From positions 576,523 to 608,522 of the forward strand of contig NZ_FRFC01000003.1 in NCBI RefSeq assembly GCF_900143675.1: DNA of 32,000 nt, read 5' to 3'. The notes beneath the pieces are model-generated. The model saw only the letters and a list, made by a program, of their open reading frames with translations, did not search any database and was not told where the DNA came from. The position numbers and the translations under genes were made by a program. Position 1 is the stretch's first letter; every line of letters begins with the position of its first letter. Shown in pieces: positions 938 through 17,472 of this stretch. Source of the DNA: Nitrosotalea sinensis. GTDB lineage: Archaea; Thermoproteota; Nitrososphaeria; Nitrososphaerales; Nitrosopumilaceae.

Positions 938-996
938 TCCAATAAATATTACGTCTTACTTCGACGCGTACTGAAATATGTACGAACAAAAACAGA

Positions 997-2465
<1,469 letters not shown>

Positions 2466-2582: not shown

Positions 2583-2630
2583 ATGATCGTCGTGTATAGT
2601 CGTGTAATATTATGACTGAATATGCTGATG
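2583..2630 (+). other. 5' arm of the 23S rRNA processing stem (pairs with 5611-5655)
   Basis: The blocks atgat / tatagtc / ttatgactga / ctgatg are complementary, in reverse order, to catcag / tcagtcataa / gactata / atcat at 5611-5655. The helix is long and imperfect, with bulges. Confidence 0.75.
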
Positions 2631-5610
<2,980 letters not shown>

Positions 5611-5655
5611 CATCAGTCAGTCATAATACATAGAGACTATACGCGACACAATCAT
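5611..5655 (+). other. 3' arm of the 23S rRNA processing stem
   Basis: Complementary to 2583-2630. Confidence 0.75.
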
Positions 5656-6551: not shown

Positions 6552-7355
6552 TTAATAGAACTTGGTCTTGCCCTTTACTATTGGTTTTGCAATATTCCAC
6601 AAGTAATTAAAATAATCAAGGCACCACTCGTAGAATTCTTCGTCTTTTCCTACAAATAGTGTGTTCATGTCTGCTTCTCCTTTTTGGTTTGGAAACATAA
6701 TTGCTGCTTGCTTGTCTGCAATGTATAGTGAAATGTTAGAGTCATCATCAAGTATTTTTTGCTCTAAAATTCCTTTTTGAATAAAATTTGTTAATTTCTT
6801 TTGTATGTTCTCTGCAATCTCGTCTGGCATGACTGCGTCAAATTTGAATATTGTAGATATCTTGGTTCCATTTTTTGCCCTGTCAAGCAAAACCTTGCCT
6901 TCATCTTCCCATGCTTGAGAAACTACAAGCTTGATGTGCTCTTTTGCCTCTGATTCCATCTTTTTTAATCTCTGTTGAACATTTGTGACTTTAGATACAA
7001 GATCACAGTTATCAAAGACTCCTAGCCTTTGTTTGAACTTGTTAGGTAAATCACATCTGTGGTCTTCAAAGAACTTGTGATATCTGTTTAGAAATTGATA
7101 GTATCTTATCTGCTCAACAACCAGTTTTCCATACTCTGTAAGGGAAAACAACCCTTCAGAGTCTTTTGCTATGATGCCTGCATCTACAAGTCTTGATGTG
7201 TTTCTGTGCGTCTCTTGTACTGAAAGCCCTAGTGCTTGTGAAATCTTGTTTGTGCGTGTAGGCTTGTCTTTTAGTATCAAAAGTATCTGGCAGCGAGTCT
7301 TACTTGCAAGCTCCAGGAAGAGCTCATCTGGTAAATCAGAATCAGATTTGCCCAT
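6552..7355 (-). CDS. Winged-helix (ArsR-type) transcriptional regulator with a long C-terminal domain (DUF1724/FilR1-like, from memory)
   Basis: The N-terminus LASKTRCQILLILKDKPTRTNKISQALGLSVQETHRNTSRLVDAGIIAKDSEGLFSLTEYG is a classic ArsR-like wHTH. It is followed by about 170 aa, as in archaeal FilR1-type regulators. Confidence 0.85.
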   Translation of the reverse strand: MGKSDSDLPDELFLELASKTRCQILLILKDKPTRTNKISQALGLSVQETHRNTSRLVDAGIIAKDSEGLFSLTEYGKLVVEQIRYYQFLNRYHKFFEDHRCDLPNKFKQRLGVFDNCDLVSKVTNVQQRLKKMESEAKEHIKLVVSQAWEDEGKVLLDRAKNGTKISTIFKFDAVMPDEIAENIQKKLTNFIQKGILEQKILDDDSNISLYIADKQAAIMFPNQKGEADMNTLFVGKDEEFYEWCLDYFNYLWNIAKPIVKGKTKFY

Positions 7356-8900: not shown

Positions 8901-10625
8901 CTAGGTATTGAGTTCAAAATAAAATGTGGAACCACTAGTACCATCACTTTCCACCCAAATTTTGCCACCCATTTTTTCTATGATGCCTTTTGATATGGCA
9001 AGACCCAAGCCTGTACCTCCTGCTTTGCGTCTCTCTGTAGTGTCTATTTGATAGAATTTCTTGAATAATTCCTTTTGATGCTCTTTGGGTATGCCCATTC
9101 CATTGTCTTTAACATAAAAAATGATTTTACTATCTTCTTTTTTGAATCCGACTTCTATTTTTCCATCTTTTTCTCCTGTGAATTTTATGGCATTTGAAAT
9201 CAAATTATCAAATACTTGACGCAATCTAGATTTGTCAGTTTCAATTACAAGTCCACTTGTTGGTACGTTTGTAACAAATTGTTTCCCGTTTTGCTGTAAT
9301 GATTCGGCATAATCTGAATTCATGTTGTTAAATAATTCATCCAATGTTACTTCCTCCGGATAAAATTTCATTTTGTCAAGATCAAGTTTTCTTGCATCCA
9401 TGATGTCACTAATCAAAGTTTCAAGTCTCTTGGTGTTTTTTTCAATTGTCTCTATTGCTTCCATTTGTTCCTTGTTCATGCTTCCCAACAATTGTTTTTT
9501 CAACATCTTACAGTAAACTGCTATTGGAACAAGTGGAGTTTTTAGCTCATGTGTTATCATTGCGGAAAATTCTTCTTTTGCCTTGTCTTTTTCTTGCAGT
9601 TTCTTTGACTTGTCTTCAAGCTCTTGGTTTAACGTTTCAAGATTTCTTCGAAGTACCTTGTCTTTATGTGAGGAGCGGTATATCATGATGCCTGATATGA
9701 CTGAAATTATTATGATTATTGTAAGTATTATTTTCGATGTATACACAACCACATCTGCTTGTTTGTATGCATCATCGTATGGTTGAACCGATACCACTGC
9801 CCAGTTATGATCATACAATGGTATGCTGGAATATGCAACAACATATGATACTCCGTCAACTGATTTTGTAGAAAGACTATTTTTTCCTGCTATTGCTTGG
9901 TTGATCTCATCTGCATATGCTGATTGGAATTTGCCAAAATCACTTGGATCATTTGATGCTATTATGGTTCCATGTTGATCAAATATTGCAATTTTTTCAT
10001 TTCCACCTAAATTTGTCTCATCAAGCTGATGTGATATTATGTTCAAATTCAATACTCCAACCCACATACCTACAAGTGTTCCATTTTCTTTTTGATATAT
10101 TGGCGAGGATATTGCTATTACATTGTGTTTTGTGGTGGCAGATACATATACTTCGCTTACATACACGTCATGATTTTTAATTGAACCCTTGTACCAATCT
10201 CGAAATGCAAAATTCAGTTGTGAATTATTTACTTGGATGGTATACGGTTCTGTTATGTACAAGTCTCCATTTGGCATTGCATAAAAAACATACTCAAAAC
10301 CTTTGAACACGTCCATTACATTTGTTGCAATTATTCTCTTTGGCATGTCCATGTCAGAAGGTATTCCTTTTAGATCTGATGAAATAAAACTTGAATATGG
10401 AGTGCTCTGCATTATTGGGTTTCTGCTTGTGATATTTATTGCACTAATTGCATTACTTAATCTTAAATTAATTCTGTCAGATAATAGTTTGAGCTGATTC
10501 TGTTTTTCTATGCCCTGTTCTCTTGTTACTTCCATTACATGTTGCTGGATAATGAGAGCAAGTGCGACTGATATTACAAGGGTAGAAGAGATTAGAACAA
10601 TTGGAACAAGAGAGGGTTTGTTCAA
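8901..10625 (-). CDS. Sensor histidine kinase: TM, extracellular Cache-like domain, TM, coiled coil, HisKA, HATPase_c
   Basis: The N-terminal TM (PSLVPIVLISSTLVISVALALII) is followed by an outside domain of about 270 aa with the Cache-type motif FAFRDWYKG, then a second TM. H-box: FSAMITHELKTPL. N-box: DNLISNAIKF. G-boxes: VKDNGMGIP and GGTGLGLAISKGIIEKMGG. TTG start preceded by AGGAGA. Confidence 0.92.
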   Translation of the reverse strand: MNKPSLVPIVLISSTLVISVALALIIQQHVMEVTREQGIEKQNQLKLLSDRINLRLSNAISAINITSRNPIMQSTPYSSFISSDLKGIPSDMDMPKRIIATNVMDVFKGFEYVFYAMPNGDLYITEPYTIQVNNSQLNFAFRDWYKGSIKNHDVYVSEVYVSATTKHNVIAISSPIYQKENGTLVGMWVGVLNLNIISHQLDETNLGGNEKIAIFDQHGTIIASNDPSDFGKFQSAYADEINQAIAGKNSLSTKSVDGVSYVVAYSSIPLYDHNWAVVSVQPYDDAYKQADVVVYTSKIILTIIIIISVISGIMIYRSSHKDKVLRRNLETLNQELEDKSKKLQEKDKAKEEFSAMITHELKTPLVPIAVYCKMLKKQLLGSMNKEQMEAIETIEKNTKRLETLISDIMDARKLDLDKMKFYPEEVTLDELFNNMNSDYAESLQQNGKQFVTNVPTSGLVIETDKSRLRQVFDNLISNAIKFTGEKDGKIEVGFKKEDSKIIFYVKDNGMGIPKEHQKELFKKFYQIDTTERRKAGGTGLGLAISKGIIEKMGGKIWVESDGTSGSTFYFELNT

Positions 10626-10653
10626 CTATATCTCCTGATTGTGTAACAGTAAC

Positions 10654-12033
10654 TCATTTCTTACACACCACCTTGCTATCTTTGTCTCCATCGTATAGGC
10701 CCTTTATTGCGTCAATGTCGCAACCTGAAATGTATGGATAATCAGGAAGCATTGGACTCATCAGATCTTCTGTTGCAGTAGAATGTGCAAGACCCAAGGC
10801 ATGTCCAAATTCATGTCTCATTATAGCTTCAAGTCTTTCTGGAGTAAGTTTGTCTGCTTTGTAAATTATTATCTTTGATTTTAAAATCTCATTTCCATCT
10901 GCAAGTGATTTTGTATATCCTGAATATCCGTCAGGACTTACATCATTTGTAAGTATAACTTCGATATCGCCTAGGCTATCTGGAGAACCACTGACATCAA
11001 ACTTTTGGGGAACGTATCTCTGAGTGGGTGGCTTGTATGCATCTTCTGTAGCTCCTTCCCAGCCTACATAATATGTAGAGGCAGTACCTTTTGGACCTTC
11101 ACCTGTTAGCGAATCGTCTATTGAAACAGTTTTTGTAGATAGTATTGCATCTTTTATGGCATCAATCATATTTTGTGGAAGGTTTGCGGTATTTGTGACG
11201 TGCACATGGATGATCCTGCCGTTTTCTATGTTCCATGCTACCCATGTGTTGACAGTGTCTCCTTGCAGGTTTTGAATTACATAGTTTGATGGTGTATTGT
11301 CTTGGTTGGGGACTCTGTATTGCTGACCCATTAGTTCTTCTACATACATGGAATATGTGACAAATCCTATGCTTGCAACAACTGCTGATATGGCTATTAT
11401 AGAGATATTTTTCTTGCCAAGATGAGAGATTTTTTTCTCTTCTGTTATTATCATTCTGTTTAGTATCTTTTTTTCTTGTTCTGCTTCTGTTTTTTGATGA
11501 TCTAGATTTGTCAAGTTGTCTTTGAGCTTGGTTATCTCTGAATTTTCTTCATCAATTTTTTTATTTAGTAAATCATTGATCTTTTCCAGTATCTTTTTTT
11601 CTTGTTGCCATTCTCTTGTCTTGTGATCTGTTTCCGGGTTGTTCGTATTGATTTGATATGATCTTCTGTCAAGCAATGATTCGATTTTTTGTTGCAATTG
11701 TTTTATGCTTGAAACCATCAATTTCATCCTCTCTTCTTGTTCTGAATTTAGAGTACCAAAATGTCCGTCTAGTAACATCTCGCCATAAGCAAGTATTGGT
11801 ACAATTGGTGTTCGTAATTCATGATTTAGTATTGTCATTACTTCTTCTGTTATCTTGACCTTTCCAGATGAAATACCGTCTACAAATTTTGTGGCAAACC
11901 CTTCTATTGCTTCAATATTTTCTATCATGTCAAGAGGGTTGTTACTTTTGGGAGGATTGGTAGATACCTTGTTTAGTATCTTTTGAATCTCTGATATTTT
12001 CAGTAATTCGTCAGCAAGATTATCATCATCCAT
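10654..12033 (-). CDS. Fusion protein: N-terminal HisKA/DHp domain (no ATPase domain), coiled coil, single TM, C-terminal matrixin-type (M10/metzincin) zinc protease domain
   Basis: H-box MTILNHELRTPIVPILAYGEML (His71). Coiled coil at residues 130-205. TM at about residues 209-231 (ISIIAISAVVASIGFVTYSMYV). HEFGHALGLAHSTATEDLMSPM (residues 407-428, nt 10815-10750) is a complete HExxHxxGxxH motif plus Met-turn. No N/G1/G2 ATP-binding boxes anywhere. Confidence 0.85.
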   Translation of the reverse strand: MDDDNLADELLKISEIQKILNKVSTNPPKSNNPLDMIENIEAIEGFATKFVDGISSGKVKITEEVMTILNHELRTPIVPILAYGEMLLDGHFGTLNSEQEERMKLMVSSIKQLQQKIESLLDRRSYQINTNNPETDHKTREWQQEKKILEKINDLLNKKIDEENSEITKLKDNLTNLDHQKTEAEQEKKILNRMIITEEKKISHLGKKNISIIAISAVVASIGFVTYSMYVEELMGQQYRVPNQDNTPSNYVIQNLQGDTVNTWVAWNIENGRIIHVHVTNTANLPQNMIDAIKDAILSTKTVSIDDSLTGEGPKGTASTYYVGWEGATEDAYKPPTQRYVPQKFDVSGSPDSLGDIEVILTNDVSPDGYSGYTKSLADGNEILKSKIIIYKADKLTPERLEAIMRHEFGHALGLAHSTATEDLMSPMLPDYPYISGCDIDAIKGLYDGDKDSKVVCKK

Positions 12034-12041
12034 GTTTACAA

Positions 12042-12404
12042 TTATGGTTTGATATTTCCAAGGTATGTGATGAGCTCGTCAGGATCTATTGGTTTTCTAA
12101 GTACTGAATGAACTCCTTTTTTCTTTAATTCGTTTTTATCGTCGTCAGATACTGAAGATGCTGTTAGTACCACTATGGTGTGCAAATAGATCTTGTTATT
12201 TTTGTGAAGATGATCAATAATATCGCGCCCTGAAAAATCAGGCATCGCAATATCTAGCAAAATGACATCATTTTTGTCACTTTCAATCATTTGTAATCCG
12301 TTTTGGCCATTATTTGCTGTTGATACTTCATGGCCACACAATTTGAAATATTTTGAGAATGCGGTTGTGATATCCTGGTTGTCATCTATTATCAGAATCT
12401 TCAT
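12042..12404 (-). CDS. Stand-alone response regulator receiver (CheY-like REC only)
   Basis: MKILIIDDNQD...VILLDIAMPDFSG...VVLTASS...KKG gives the acidic pocket DD, the phospho-acceptor Asp in LLDIAMP, and conserved T and K. 120 aa with no output domain. The stop lies 8 nt before the next gene. Confidence 0.92.
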   Translation of the reverse strand: MKILIIDDNQDITTAFSKYFKLCGHEVSTANNGQNGLQMIESDKNDVILLDIAMPDFSGRDIIDHLHKNNKIYLHTIVVLTASSVSDDDKNELKKKGVHSVLRKPIDPDELITYLGNIKP

Positions 12405-14582: not shown

Positions 14583-15074
14583 TTAGATCTTTGATCTCTT
14601 GGAGATTGTAATCATCGCTACTATTGATATTACAATAATTAATCCTGCAAGTGGACCAAACTCTGGAATTGGTACATTTGCATCAAAGTCTGGCGCAATC
14701 TGTGCAAATTTTACAGGATCTTGTTGTTTTGCCACGTATAATCCCTGCAATACTTCTGGTTGTATCTTGGCAACTGAATCTGGATCTATGTTGATACTCT
14801 TAAGACACTGGTATGATATTCCTAAATTAGTCAACATCGGACTGGGATAAGTTGATTTTAAAAGAGTTGCAGCAATGTCTTCTGGTCTTTCCCCTGACCA
14901 GTACTTGTTTACTTGGTATACGAAATATGAATAATCTGATCTTGATGCTTGAATATCTGAACCATTGCAAGAATACTCTTTGGTTGTTGTATTGTATTGT
15001 GCAAATGCCTTTTCAGCAAGTATTGCAGGAGATAAAATCAAGACAGAAATTATCAGAATTGTTGCTAGTTTCAT
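14583..15074 (-). CDS. Secreted surface protein with PEFG-CTERM sorting signal
   Basis: Signal peptide MKLATILIISVLILSPAILAEKAFA. C-terminus PIPEFGPLAGLIIVISIVAMITISKRSKI: a PEFG motif, a hydrophobic helix and a basic tail. Confidence 0.8.
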   Translation of the reverse strand: MKLATILIISVLILSPAILAEKAFAQYNTTTKEYSCNGSDIQASRSDYSYFVYQVNKYWSGERPEDIAATLLKSTYPSPMLTNLGISYQCLKSINIDPDSVAKIQPEVLQGLYVAKQQDPVKFAQIAPDFDANVPIPEFGPLAGLIIVISIVAMITISKRSKI

Positions 15075-15885: not shown

Positions 15886-17472
15886 TTGGGATATTCTAGA
15901 TACTATCTTGTTGCAATTTGTCTAGTCTCAGCCGTGACATTTTCTTTATCATTTGCAGAAATTCCTGTTGTCATTCCACTTGGTGCCGCAAATCAAAACA
16001 ATCCGTTTTCCTTGTCCCCTTCTACACTTGAAGTTCAAGTAAATGATACAGTCACATGGAAAAACCAGGACACTGCAGCACATACTGTAACTACCGGCAA
16101 GCCAGGACTTGGATTTGATGGAAGAATTGATAGTGGAATTATACCACCAGGCGGTACATTTTCGTACACTTTTACCAAGACTGGCCTGTACCAATACTAT
16201 TGTCTGTTTCATCCATGGATGACTGGATTTGTAAATGTCGGAACAAGCACTCCTGACATGCCAATTGGAATACTGGTGTCAACTGACAAGTCTGTGTATT
16301 CAAAGGGTGATGCCATACATGTATCAGGTCAGGTGTCGCAATTTATTGCAAACAAGCAGGTTACAGTCTGGGTCACAGACTCTAAAGGCACTGGAGTATC
16401 AATAGTTCATACAGAAACCAGGACTGGAAGGGACTTTGGAGTTGACATACCTGTAACTGCAGCCACCTGGATTCCTGGCAATAACTATACAATATACGCA
16501 CAATATGGTCCTGCAAGCTCTGTTGCAACAGCACTGGTCCAATACGAGCCAAGTTCTAACAACAATACTGTTCAAGATACGACAAGTGATGTCACACCTT
16601 CCAAGGACACATACATGTCATCATACAAAAAAGCAATTCCTGACTCTAATGGATATGTGACAGTTCAGACAGGGCGTCATGTATACACTTCGGATTCTCC
16701 TGTTATTGTATACGGCTCTATCTGGGATGGTGTGTTTGCCCAAGTTGGTGGAGGTGCATACCTGGCAACAGTTCCAATAAGTGATACCACAGGAAACACT
16801 GTGGCAGAGCTTGTTGATGTCACTATGACAGACATGAATGGAAATACGGTATCATCAAAACAAGTTCAAGTCTCAAGTGATGGAAGCTATGTCGCCCAAA
16901 TGAAAATTCCAATAGACTCTGATGGATTGTATCATGTACAAGCACAACTCAAGACAAAAGATGGATTGGTGCAAACTCTGGGTGGTGATGTCATATCAAA
17001 ACTTGGCTCTTCTACAAACTTTCTAGTTATCACACCTGATGCATTTCCGGTATCGACAAACTTGGGCAAGTATGATGTTGAGATATCAAGCAACTCTACT
17101 GTAACTGGTTTTACAGCAGATCTTGCACAGAAAAAGATCTCATTTAATGTCCAGGGAGAAAGCGGCACTCGTGGAACAACTGATGTTATAGTACCAAAAT
17201 ATGTTCTTGGTGGACAGATTCAAGTTTTAATTGACGGGATTGCACAGCCGTTTAATTCTGATGGTGTGATTGTTACATCTGATACTGCATCTGAGACTGG
17301 ATTTGAGATAAACTATCATCATAGTGTGCATACCATTGAGTTGGTGGGCTCTGATGCTGCAGAACCTCCTGTACAAGTCCAGGCAGTGCCAGAGTTTGGG
17401 CTTGCACCTGTAATTTTGGCATTATCTGTAGCAGGAATTATTGCAGTATCGTACAGGACTAAATTAGTATAA
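15886..17472 (+). CDS. Blue (type-1) copper protein: N-terminal plastocyanin-like cupredoxin domain, long beta-rich stalk, PEFG-CTERM anchor
   Basis: Signal peptide, then VQVNDTVTWKNQDTAAHTVTT...GLYQYYCLFHPWMTG (His...Cys-x2-His-x2-Met ligand set). C-terminus AVPEFGLAPVILALSVAGIIAVSYRTKLV. TTG is the only start available after the upstream stop. Confidence 0.88.
   Translation: MGYSRYYLVAICLVSAVTFSLSFAEIPVVIPLGAANQNNPFSLSPSTLEVQVNDTVTWKNQDTAAHTVTTGKPGLGFDGRIDSGIIPPGGTFSYTFTKTGLYQYYCLFHPWMTGFVNVGTSTPDMPIGILVSTDKSVYSKGDAIHVSGQVSQFIANKQVTVWVTDSKGTGVSIVHTETRTGRDFGVDIPVTAATWIPGNNYTIYAQYGPASSVATALVQYEPSSNNNTVQDTTSDVTPSKDTYMSSYKKAIPDSNGYVTVQTGRHVYTSDSPVIVYGSIWDGVFAQVGGGAYLATVPISDTTGNTVAELVDVTMTDMNGNTVSSKQVQVSSDGSYVAQMKIPIDSDGLYHVQAQLKTKDGLVQTLGGDVISKLGSSTNFLVITPDAFPVSTNLGKYDVEISSNSTVTGFTADLAQKKISFNVQGESGTRGTTDVIVPKYVLGGQIQVLIDGIAQPFNSDGVIVTSDTASETGFEINYHHSVHTIELVGSDAAEPPVQVQAVPEFGLAPVILALSVAGIIAVSYRTKLV

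Follow-up and report, generated by a model that had tools for sequence, protein, structure and literature searches.

A kinase-less HisKA domain joined to a predicted extracellular matrixin-type protease in Nitrosotalea sinensis, and its candidate role in a three-gene signalling module

Inside-out control of proteolysis has been described in Pseudomonas fluorescens, where LapD and LapG act on periplasmic proteolysis in a c-di-GMP-mediated manner (PMC3032553). For the HisKA domains of two-component systems, it is known that only kinase activity requires the acidic residue next to the phospho-acceptor His (H+1), and only phosphatase activity the Thr or Asn at H+4 (Willett and Kirby 2012, PMC3510030). 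RedE of Myxococcus does not autophosphorylate; it takes a phosphoryl group from a response regulator and dephosphorylates a single-domain receiver (REC) (PMC2755868). Archaeal proteins with HisKA and no HATPase domain have been reported from Archaeoglobi and Methanomicrobia as cytoplasmic proteins with N-terminal PAS or GAF domains and HisKA at the C-terminus (Galperin et al. 2018, PMC5847659). In the same census, bare receivers account for approximately three quarters of thaumarchaeal response regulators, and most of them lack a conserved neighbourhood, so that their functions "could not be inferred"; dCache domains are almost confined to Methanomicrobia, and no protease fusion is mentioned in the census or its supplements (PMC5847659). 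Here, we describe a gene from a 32,000-nucleotide stretch of the Nitrosotalea sinensis genome (hereafter the window) whose product joins a HisKA domain that lacks the ATPase part to a matrixin-type zinc protease domain on the predicted outer side of the membrane. We propose that this gene and its two neighbours (8901-12404, minus strand) form one signalling module with extracellular proteolysis as its output, a reading to which we give about an even chance.

The fusion gene lies at 10654..12033 on the minus strand. It encodes 459 amino acids and matches, at 100% identity, a protein of Nitrosotalea sinensis; the only annotation given to that protein at its source is "Peptidase M10A and M12B matrixin and adamalysin". 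From the N- to the C-terminus the order of parts is a HisKA/DHp domain, a flexible linker, a coiled coil of about 70 residues, one transmembrane (TM) segment and an ectodomain with the fold of matrix metalloproteinases (MMPs). In Pfam searches, both HisKA and Peptidase_M10 scored above their cut-offs and HATPase_c had no match. The AlphaFold2 (AF2) model of the full protein (pLDDT 70.9) contains four N-terminal helices, the linker, a helix at residues 137-238 and an alpha/beta ectodomain. An earlier note, made from the letters alone, had described this open reading frame (ORF) as having the reverse order of a normal sensor kinase, with a cytoplasmic DHp, then a TM segment and a protease outside; Pfam, conservation and topology bore out this anatomy. 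Conservation, as given below, refers to 71 full-length homologues from at least four genera that are 42-59% identical to the window protein, and topology statistics refer to 120 homologues.

The HisKA/DHp helical hairpin comprises residues 60-127 (11653..11856, minus strand). It was recognised by Pfam (PF00512; 39 bits against a cut-off of 26.9, residues 64-122), by the family profile and in the AF2 model, with helices at residues 63-88 and 97-127. The profile of the 71 homologues matched the DHp domains of solved kinases over both helices (residues 61-132) with E = 2e-10 to 1e-6, among them 9m08 (E = 2e-10) and HK853 (3dge, E = 8.5e-7). The H-box reads H71-E72-L-R-T75-P76, with the His71 codon at 11821-11823. 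His71 is invariant, and E72, T75, P76 and P79 are at least 90% conserved. The H-box helix around His71 is thus as genuine as the earlier note had taken it to be.

The same holds for the absence of an ATP-binding N, G1 or G2 box: a pattern scan of the 459-residue protein was empty, and HATPase_c went unmatched in it even at E ≤ 1. The linker, coiled coil and TM segment leave no room for such a domain after the DHp; the protein is not a kinase. Its DHp is 34-37% identical to that of the operon kinase (37% in the window), and the two share the motif HEL[RK]TP[LI]VPI. Divergent lineages with a DHp have Asp or Glu in place of the phospho-acceptor His and keep Ser or Asn at H+4 and the following TPI helix.

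The DHp is preceded by a two-helix region (residues 1-58; 11860..12033, minus strand; AF2 helices 3-25 and 33-55), in which E9, Q12, I13 and L15 are at least 90% conserved. Residues 5-26 hold a weak third copy of the ELEQEK-type motif of the coiled coil (hhalign probability 71%). The possibility that this region is a degenerate DHp repeat forming an intramolecular pseudo-dimer was rejected (hhalign probability 3%).

The linker between the DHp and the coiled coil (residues 128-136; 11626..11652, minus strand) is predicted to be disordered and is not conserved: AF2 pLDDT falls below 50 at residues 126-135, residues 128-136 are non-helical and no consensus residues occur among the homologues. The cytoplasmic coiled coil follows at residues 137-207 (11413..11625, minus strand), within the continuous AF2 helix 137-238. 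The coiled coil had been announced in the earlier note; its length had been overestimated at about 80 residues, as it measures approximately 70 and is parted from the DHp by residues 126-136. It holds the motif H-x-x-x-E-L-E-Q-E-K-x-x-L-x-K-I-N twice, at residues 137-153 and 179-195, and these two copies, 42 residues (six heptads) apart, align to each other with an hhalign probability of 94% (E = 1e-7). Q186, L205 and K208 are invariant, and E141, Q144, L149, L156 and E183 are at least 90% conserved. The ELEQEK motif is associated with the presence of an upstream REC gene (odds ratio 28, p = 5e-7, confounded by clade); since it tracks the REC-linked clade, this evidence is phylogenetically non-independent. 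As a family-wide juxtamembrane element the motif was rejected, being present in only 24 of 139 representatives.

The single TM segment, KNISIIAISAVVASIGFVTYSMYV, spans residues 208-231 (11341..11412, minus strand), in agreement with its earlier placement at about 209-231. It is the only hydrophobic peak of the protein and is spanned by the AF2 helix 137-238. The 15 residues on either side of it contain, on average, 4.2 Lys or Arg before the segment vs 0.76 after it. Additionally, topology analysis of the 120 homologues revealed no N-terminal signal sequence, and in 118 of them exactly two cysteines lie beyond the TM segment. The charge bias, the lack of a signal sequence and the cysteine pair place the N-terminus inside and the protease outside, and support the prediction of a single-pass N-in/C-out membrane protein.

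The predicted extracellular domain (residues 232-459; 10657..11340, minus strand) was assigned to the matrixin fold by Foldseek, Pfam M10, profile comparison and motif. Foldseek aligned the whole ectodomain with the catalytic domains of MMP-3, -7, -1, -12, -13, -11 and -8 with probability 1.0, over approximately 200 columns and with TM-scores of 0.53-0.65 normalised to the target; the model is mostly at pLDDT 72-94 in this part. The family profile matches MMP-20 at E = 1e-9. Pfam Peptidase_M10 scored 33.6 bits against a cut-off of 24 for residues 400-447, covering only positions 107-158 of the 159-position profile.

The zinc site HEFGHALGLAH and the Met-turn M425 are located at 10759-10815, HEFGHALGLAHSTATEDLM, and the metzincin signature HEFGHALGLAH-x7-M is intact and invariant in the family, as the earlier note had read it. 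The spacing of seven stands when it is counted from H417 to M425, with the Ser of "AHS" inside the seven, the same as in MMPs. H407, E408, H411, G414, H417, S418, L424, M425, C438 and C457 are invariant. The catalytic zinc site of the ectodomain is complete, and the domain is predicted to be a zinc protease. There is no cysteine-switch propeptide, as the sole cysteines, C438 and C457, both follow the active site, and latency would have to be controlled in another way.

Residues 232-262, YVIQNLQGDTVNTW (11248-11340), just outside the membrane, are among the most conserved of the family. Y251, L256, G258, D259, T263 and W267 are invariant in or near this segment, where AF2 pLDDT is below 50. The segment may be a contact site for a partner, a metal or the active site.

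The fusion gene lies between two other two-component genes of the same strand. The first gene of the operon (12042..12404) encodes a stand-alone REC of 120 amino acids (Pfam Response_reg, 78.5 bits) and ends 8 nt before the protease gene. It carries D7, D8, D51, T81 and K104, the last of these read straight from the sequence; D7, D8, D51 and T81 are kept in 52-55 of 55 related RECs. The last gene (8901..10625), 28 nt downstream of the fusion gene, encodes a dCache_1-TM-HisKA-HATPase_c sensor kinase of 574 amino acids (87.9, 55.5 and 104.7 bits for the three domains) and has an AGGAGA Shine-Dalgarno-like element before its TTG start.

We surveyed 84 related loci, of which a scan of species-representative genomes supplied 79 and contig look-ups the remainder. 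All are from Nitrosopumilaceae or are otherwise thaumarchaeal, with the exception of L082 (see below). At 12 distinct long-form loci, i.e., those encoding the DHp, a REC gene stands directly upstream of the fusion gene (gap of -23 to +13 nt). A kinase is adjacent at 10 of these 12, namely those with enough flanking sequence, and in 7 of the 10 it is a dCache kinase. The RECs upstream of long forms, that of the window included, form one clade. In the window, the genes are ordered REC-fusion-HK (HK, histidine kinase), and in Nitrosotenuis, Nitrosarchaeum and Nitrosopumilus they are ordered HK-REC-fusion; the trio is thus conserved across Nitrosopumilaceae genera and survives rearrangement.

The dCache domain of the window kinase keeps R-x-W-Y and has Ser and Val where Mlp37, Tlp3 and PctC have two Asp, which we take to bind the ligand amino group. 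A loop in which the protease makes amino acids and the dCache kinase senses them was considered and, with Ser and Val at these positions, is not supported.

A wider view was provided by an exhaustive phmmer search with the window ectodomain against 1.84 billion representative proteins. It revealed 342 representatives, 157 of them at E ≤ 1e-30. In nearly all of the best 150 of the 342, the M10 domain is C-terminal. The same 150 include 100 single-TM, N-anchored proteins, 10 proteins with a DHp, 12 with the architecture TM-dCache_1-TM-loop-TM-M10 and 12 with a polytopic N-terminal domain. The zinc motif is intact in 141 of the 150 and degenerate in nine.

DHp-less paralogues (23 in number) begin at the coiled coil and have a REC gene directly upstream and, often, a CHASE3 or dCache kinase gene downstream. 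In a tree of ectodomains these short forms interleave with the long ones, and the window protein nests among short forms of Nitrosotalea. The interleaving and the retained REC link indicate that the DHp is an add-on that was lost or shuffled, while the link between REC and protease persists.

Other relatives carry the receiver on the same polypeptide as the protease. We found uninterrupted ORFs (translation table 11) for REC-TM-M10 fusions in P0177 (L085, 185-1429) and P0232 (L086, 5001-6326, GCA_028867785.1) and for a REC-coiled coil-TM-M10 fusion in P0137 (L087, 557-1984, plus strand), all with Pfam REC scores of 64-67 bits. The P0177 type recurs in five clusters, 65-100% identical, from JGI, Logan, NCBI and ENA, all of which keep the acidic pair, phospho-Asp, Thr and Lys of REC as well as an intact zinc site. 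In P0177, P0270, P0271, P0272, P0274 and P0137, which are relatives of the window protein and not the window protein itself, the ORFs are uninterrupted, M10 is C-terminal to REC, the REC scores 64-67 bits and keeps the phospho-Asp, Thr and Lys (except in P0137, with Glu for the Asp), and the zinc site is intact. The REC-TM-M10 fusions are orphans with no adjacent kinase.

In the dCache-M10 fusions, a Lys/Arg-rich loop of 15-60 residues lies between TM2 and TM3; ten such loops contain 101 Lys or Arg, vs 23 in the 20 residues after TM3. This places dCache and M10 both outside and leaves no cytoplasmic signalling domain. Their dCache domains are close to that of the window kinase (phmmer 1e-32 to 1e-44) and share with it the motif NFAFRDWY.

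Thus, the ectodomain occurs in four wirings: with a fused DHp and a separate REC (as in the window), with the coiled coil only and a separate REC, with a fused REC, and with a fused dCache. A small ectodomain family that is wired to signalling modules in several ways is what is new here. Since a receiver controls what is attached to it, the REC-TM-M10 fusions argue that the matrixin domain is the output; in dCache-TM-TM-M10 proteins, which have no cytoplasmic domain, the protease is the only possible output. On the strength of these architectures, the REC and dCache fusions identify the matrixin domain as the predicted output. Taken together, we see slightly less than an even chance that Nitrosopumilaceae possess a family in which an extracellular matrixin protease serves as a two-component output domain. 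It would include REC-TM-M10 regulators, with the effector across the membrane from the receiver, and the version found in the window, in which a kinase-less, inverted DHp would tether a free REC to the protease.

The mechanism that we favour would start with the dCache kinase, which would sense an external ligand and then phosphorylate the REC. The phosphorylated REC would dock on the protease protein at its cytoplasmic side, using the conserved ELEQEK coiled coil, the DHp (the canonical surface for REC binding) or both, and docking might alter the association state of the coiled-coil/TM dimer and thereby switch the ecto-protease on or off. Reset could take place at the site of action, with the DHp (H-E-x-x-T) dephosphorylating the REC or His71 taking the phosphoryl group. 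Related proteins appear to run the same input-output logic with fewer parts, as REC-TM-M10 or dCache-TM-TM-M10.

The earlier note had named two readings, one of which was that the phosphorylation state of the DHp is coupled to an ecto-protease. Control of an ecto-protease gains from the REC-M10 and dCache-M10 fusions. The DHp as its driver does not stand as stated, given the flexible, unconserved linker, the DHp-less paralogues with the same operon and the replacement of His with Asp or Glu. Control more likely lies with the co-encoded REC, for which the DHp would be a putative site of docking and of dephosphorylation or phospho-acceptance.

Several observations weigh against the module as we propose it. 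A cytoplasmic event would have to reach the catalytic domain through a single TM helix, and the disordered linker makes it unlikely that the DHp itself passes a signal on through a rigid helix. With the H-E-L-K-T phosphatase motif of the operon kinase already present, a further phosphatase seems redundant. E72, at H+1, is at least 90% conserved in a protein without an ATPase domain, which could mean trans-phosphorylation by the neighbouring kinase. The flexible linker, the phosphatase redundancy and the conserved E72 together keep alive a model in which the fusion protein is trans-phosphorylated or is an accessory of the kinase. Furthermore, a fold search with a separate model of residues 1-132 (pLDDT 77.6) gave no significant match, so that the DHp assignment rests on profile evidence and predicted secondary structure. 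No cognate-specific covariation was found between the DHp of the fusion and that of the operon kinase (identity 0.342 vs 0.345, permutation p = 0.74), in a comparison that is underpowered at n = 9. Finally, the nine degenerate zinc sites among the best 150 relatives, that of the REC fusion P0232 among them, indicate that catalysis is not always the output.

These degenerate sites fit binding rather than catalysis, and to that extent they suit the other reading of the earlier note, in which the matrixin domain is an extracellular sensor or substrate trap. It would signal through the TM segment and the coiled coil to the DHp, which would set the phosphorylation of a REC that acts on other targets. 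A DHp is normally the recipient of transmembrane signals, its His and the Thr at H+4 are conserved here, and stand-alone RECs can themselves be outputs in the manner of CheY (PMC5847659). Nevertheless, we consider such outside-in signalling unlikely. The sensor or trap is disfavoured by both types of fusion: the dCache-TM-TM-M10 proteins lack any cytoplasmic domain that could take up a signal, and the receiver of the REC-TM-M10 proteins is N-terminal and has no other effector. The zinc site is intact in most relatives and invariant in the DHp clade, a disordered linker lies between the DHp and the TM-proximal helix, and sister paralogues that retain the operon do without the DHp.

The conservation of E72, a residue of autophosphorylation chemistry, in a protein with no resident ATPase suits a different proposal, namely that the fusion protein modulates the dCache kinase. 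It might do so as a "half kinase" in a DHp-DHp heterodimer, either dominant-negative or trans-phosphorylated, by contact between the ectodomains, or by cleaving or producing the ligand. The 34-37% identity and the common H-box motif of the two DHps are consistent with this, and dCache and M10 on one polypeptide in 12 of the best 150 relatives amount to a Rosetta-stone link between the ectodomains. Set against it are the lack of covariation (underpowered as it is), the pairing of short forms with CHASE3 as well as dCache kinases, the REC-TM-M10 fusions that have no adjacent kinase, and the Ser and Val of the dCache domain, which speak against a simple amino acid-sensing loop. We regard a role as kinase accessory as improbable.

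A kinase-less DHp with a conserved His would also suit a histidine phosphotransferase, and phospho-acceptor or phosphatase roles were proposed for the archaeal proteins with HisKA and no HATPase (Galperin et al. 2018, PMC5847659). In a Spo0B-like phosphorelay of this kind, the phosphoryl group would pass from the kinase to the REC, to His71 and on to a second, unlinked receiver, and the protease would be only a membrane anchor or have an unrelated function. Two REC genes occur at three loci (L023, L024 and L033), whereas a single one adjoins the window gene. The His is replaced with Asp or Glu in several lineages, the DHp was repeatedly lost while the linkage between REC and protease was retained, and the REC-M10 and dCache-M10 fusions would be left unexplained. 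We give a phosphorelay only a slim chance. That the DHp is a functionless relic, a fragment of the neighbouring kinase acquired by a membrane-anchored protease, would fit its resemblance to the DHp of that kinase and the close paralogues without a DHp, but is barely credible and already close to refuted by conservation: His71 is invariant and the H-box at least 90% conserved in 71 sequences at 42-59% identity from at least four genera, the N-terminal helices are conserved too, and REC adjacency is strictly kept.

If the ecto-protease were indeed controlled by the REC, this would be the first case of extracellular proteolysis under inside-out, phospho-relay-driven control, and it would extend two-component signalling to an extracellular output. 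To our knowledge, no two-component design with its output outside the cell has been described in bacteria. It would also give the stand-alone receivers that abound in ammonia-oxidising archaea their first assigned target: where the census of archaeal systems found bare thaumarchaeal RECs without a conserved neighbourhood, the window locus supplies one, together with a testable target through the REC-M10 and dCache-M10 fusions. Ammonia-oxidising archaea, which are major players in the global nitrogen cycle, would then regulate surface or extracellular proteolysis by external ligands, and could use it to remodel the S-layer or matrix, to release nutrients or in cell-cell interaction. In size and solubility, the parts are suited to in vitro work.

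Some members of the family deserve separate mention. In the REC of P0137, Glu replaces the phospho-acceptor Asp and DG the acidic pair, so that this REC may be a constitutive pseudo-receiver; the P0137 gene stands tail-to-tail with that of a second M10 paralogue (L087, 1989-3119, minus strand). P0232 combines a canonical REC with a degenerate zinc site, HEFGRALGLGNS, which would make its output a pseudo-protease. A gene with a guanylate-cyclase domain (PF00211) lies 0.7 kb downstream of it on the opposite strand. Another apparent REC and M10 combination, P0046 (477 aa), was rejected as a gene-calling artefact, as a stop codon at L005 574-576 ends the REC ORF.

Paralogues of about 600-640 aa (L061, 4909-6786; P0183, P0192, P0204, P0217-P0219 and others) combine 8-10 predicted TM helices with M10. 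Their N-terminal membrane module has no Pfam match and is possibly another sensor; several of them have degenerate zinc sites. Long cytoplasmic repeat regions of the AENLK-x-TA type precede the TM segment in some paralogues (L042, 5107-6702; L072, 5389-6792; P0139, 730 aa), and P0139 has, C-terminal to M10, an extension with two copies of W-x(6)-W-x(2)-G-x-I-x-D-x-[DE]-[FY]-x-x-G-[IV]-Q-Y-L-I.

The most divergent DHp-bearing homologue (29% identity) comes from the contig labelled Proteobacteria at L082 (5086-7691, JADFOC010000103.1), where it follows a polytopic kinase and ends at the contig end. Along this contig, GC content is 0.50-0.54 where the genes are typically bacterial and falls to 0.42 in the kinase/DHp region. 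As the contig is probably chimeric or mis-binned, it was rejected as a bacterial occurrence and left out of the counts.

Elsewhere in the window, a winged-HTH protein of 267 aa with FilR1_middle (DUF1724) and no REC is encoded at 6552-7355 (minus strand), 1.5 kb downstream of the kinase gene and on the same strand. FilR1 is a response regulator of a Methanosaeta two-component system, and its REC-less relative might bind DNA in partnership with stand-alone RECs. Near the orthologous loci L002 and L086 there are regulators of the TrmB type. Two predicted surface proteins, at 14583-15074 (minus strand) and 15886-17472 (plus strand), end in PEFG, a hydrophobic stretch and a basic tail (PEFGPLAGLIIVISIVAMITISKRSKI and PEFGLAPVILALSVAGIIAVSYRTKLV), resembling a C-terminal sorting signal of thaumarchaea; a plastocyanin-like copper domain is present in the larger of the two. 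As a matter of speculation, they could be substrates or neighbours of the surface protease. The high-GC block at 1-6 kb is due to complete archaeal 16S (996-2465, plus strand, 1464.6 bits) and 23S rRNA genes (2622-5619, plus strand, 2700.1 bits), and at the gathering threshold no accompanying 5S rRNA was reported.

The earlier note knew of no characterised example of either of its two readings, and our literature search likewise found no characterised example of this architecture. Publications on HisKA with Peptidase_M10, matrixins in Nitrosopumilus, archaeal two-component systems with metalloproteases and membrane-bound response regulators did not describe it. A 2025 phylogeny of MMPs mentions those of "Nitrospumilales" in passing only, and a study of sponge symbionts includes arCOG04994 matrixins among proteases with a possible nutritional role.

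In function, the proposed mechanism comes closest to LapD/LapG, in which a cytoplasmic state relayed across the membrane likewise controls a protease outside the cytoplasm (PMC3032553). The input of LapD is c-di-GMP acting on degenerate GGDEF/EAL domains through a HAMP domain; the window protein has no such Pfam domains, and its input would be His-Asp phosphotransfer. LapG is a separate, sequestered cysteine protease, whereas the window protein has a zinc protease fused to the transducer. In addition, LapD/LapG is bacterial and the window system archaeal.

RedE and the archaeal proteins with HisKA and no HATPase share with the window protein a conserved His, the lack of autokinase activity and a shown or proposed role as REC phospho-acceptor or phosphatase. 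Unlike the PAS/GAF-HisKA proteins (PMC5847659), the window protein has its HisKA domain near the N-terminus, followed by the coiled coil, the TM segment and the extracellular enzyme. Canonical sensor kinases, such as HK853 and the neighbouring dCache kinase, align with it over the H-box and both DHp helices, and, like them, it is encoded next to a REC. It differs from them in having no CA/HATPase_c domain, the position of which is taken by the TM segment and the outside domain.

On the protease side, the ectodomain resembles MMPs (MEROPS M10A) in the catalytic fold, in HExxHxxGxxH-x7-M and in the Ser after the third His. Membrane-type MMPs are membrane-anchored and have a cytoplasmic tail, another likeness to the window protein. 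In contrast to MMPs, the window protein has no PRCGxPD propeptide and no hemopexin domain, its anchor is N-terminal (type II) and not C-terminal, identity outside the active-site helix is 15-20%, and the cytoplasmic part is a prokaryotic two-component domain. BlaR1 and MecR1 also signal across the membrane with an extracellular domain that is coupled to a zinc protease domain in one polypeptide. Free of two-component domains, BlaR1 is the mirror image of the window protein, with the sensor outside and an M56 protease inside.

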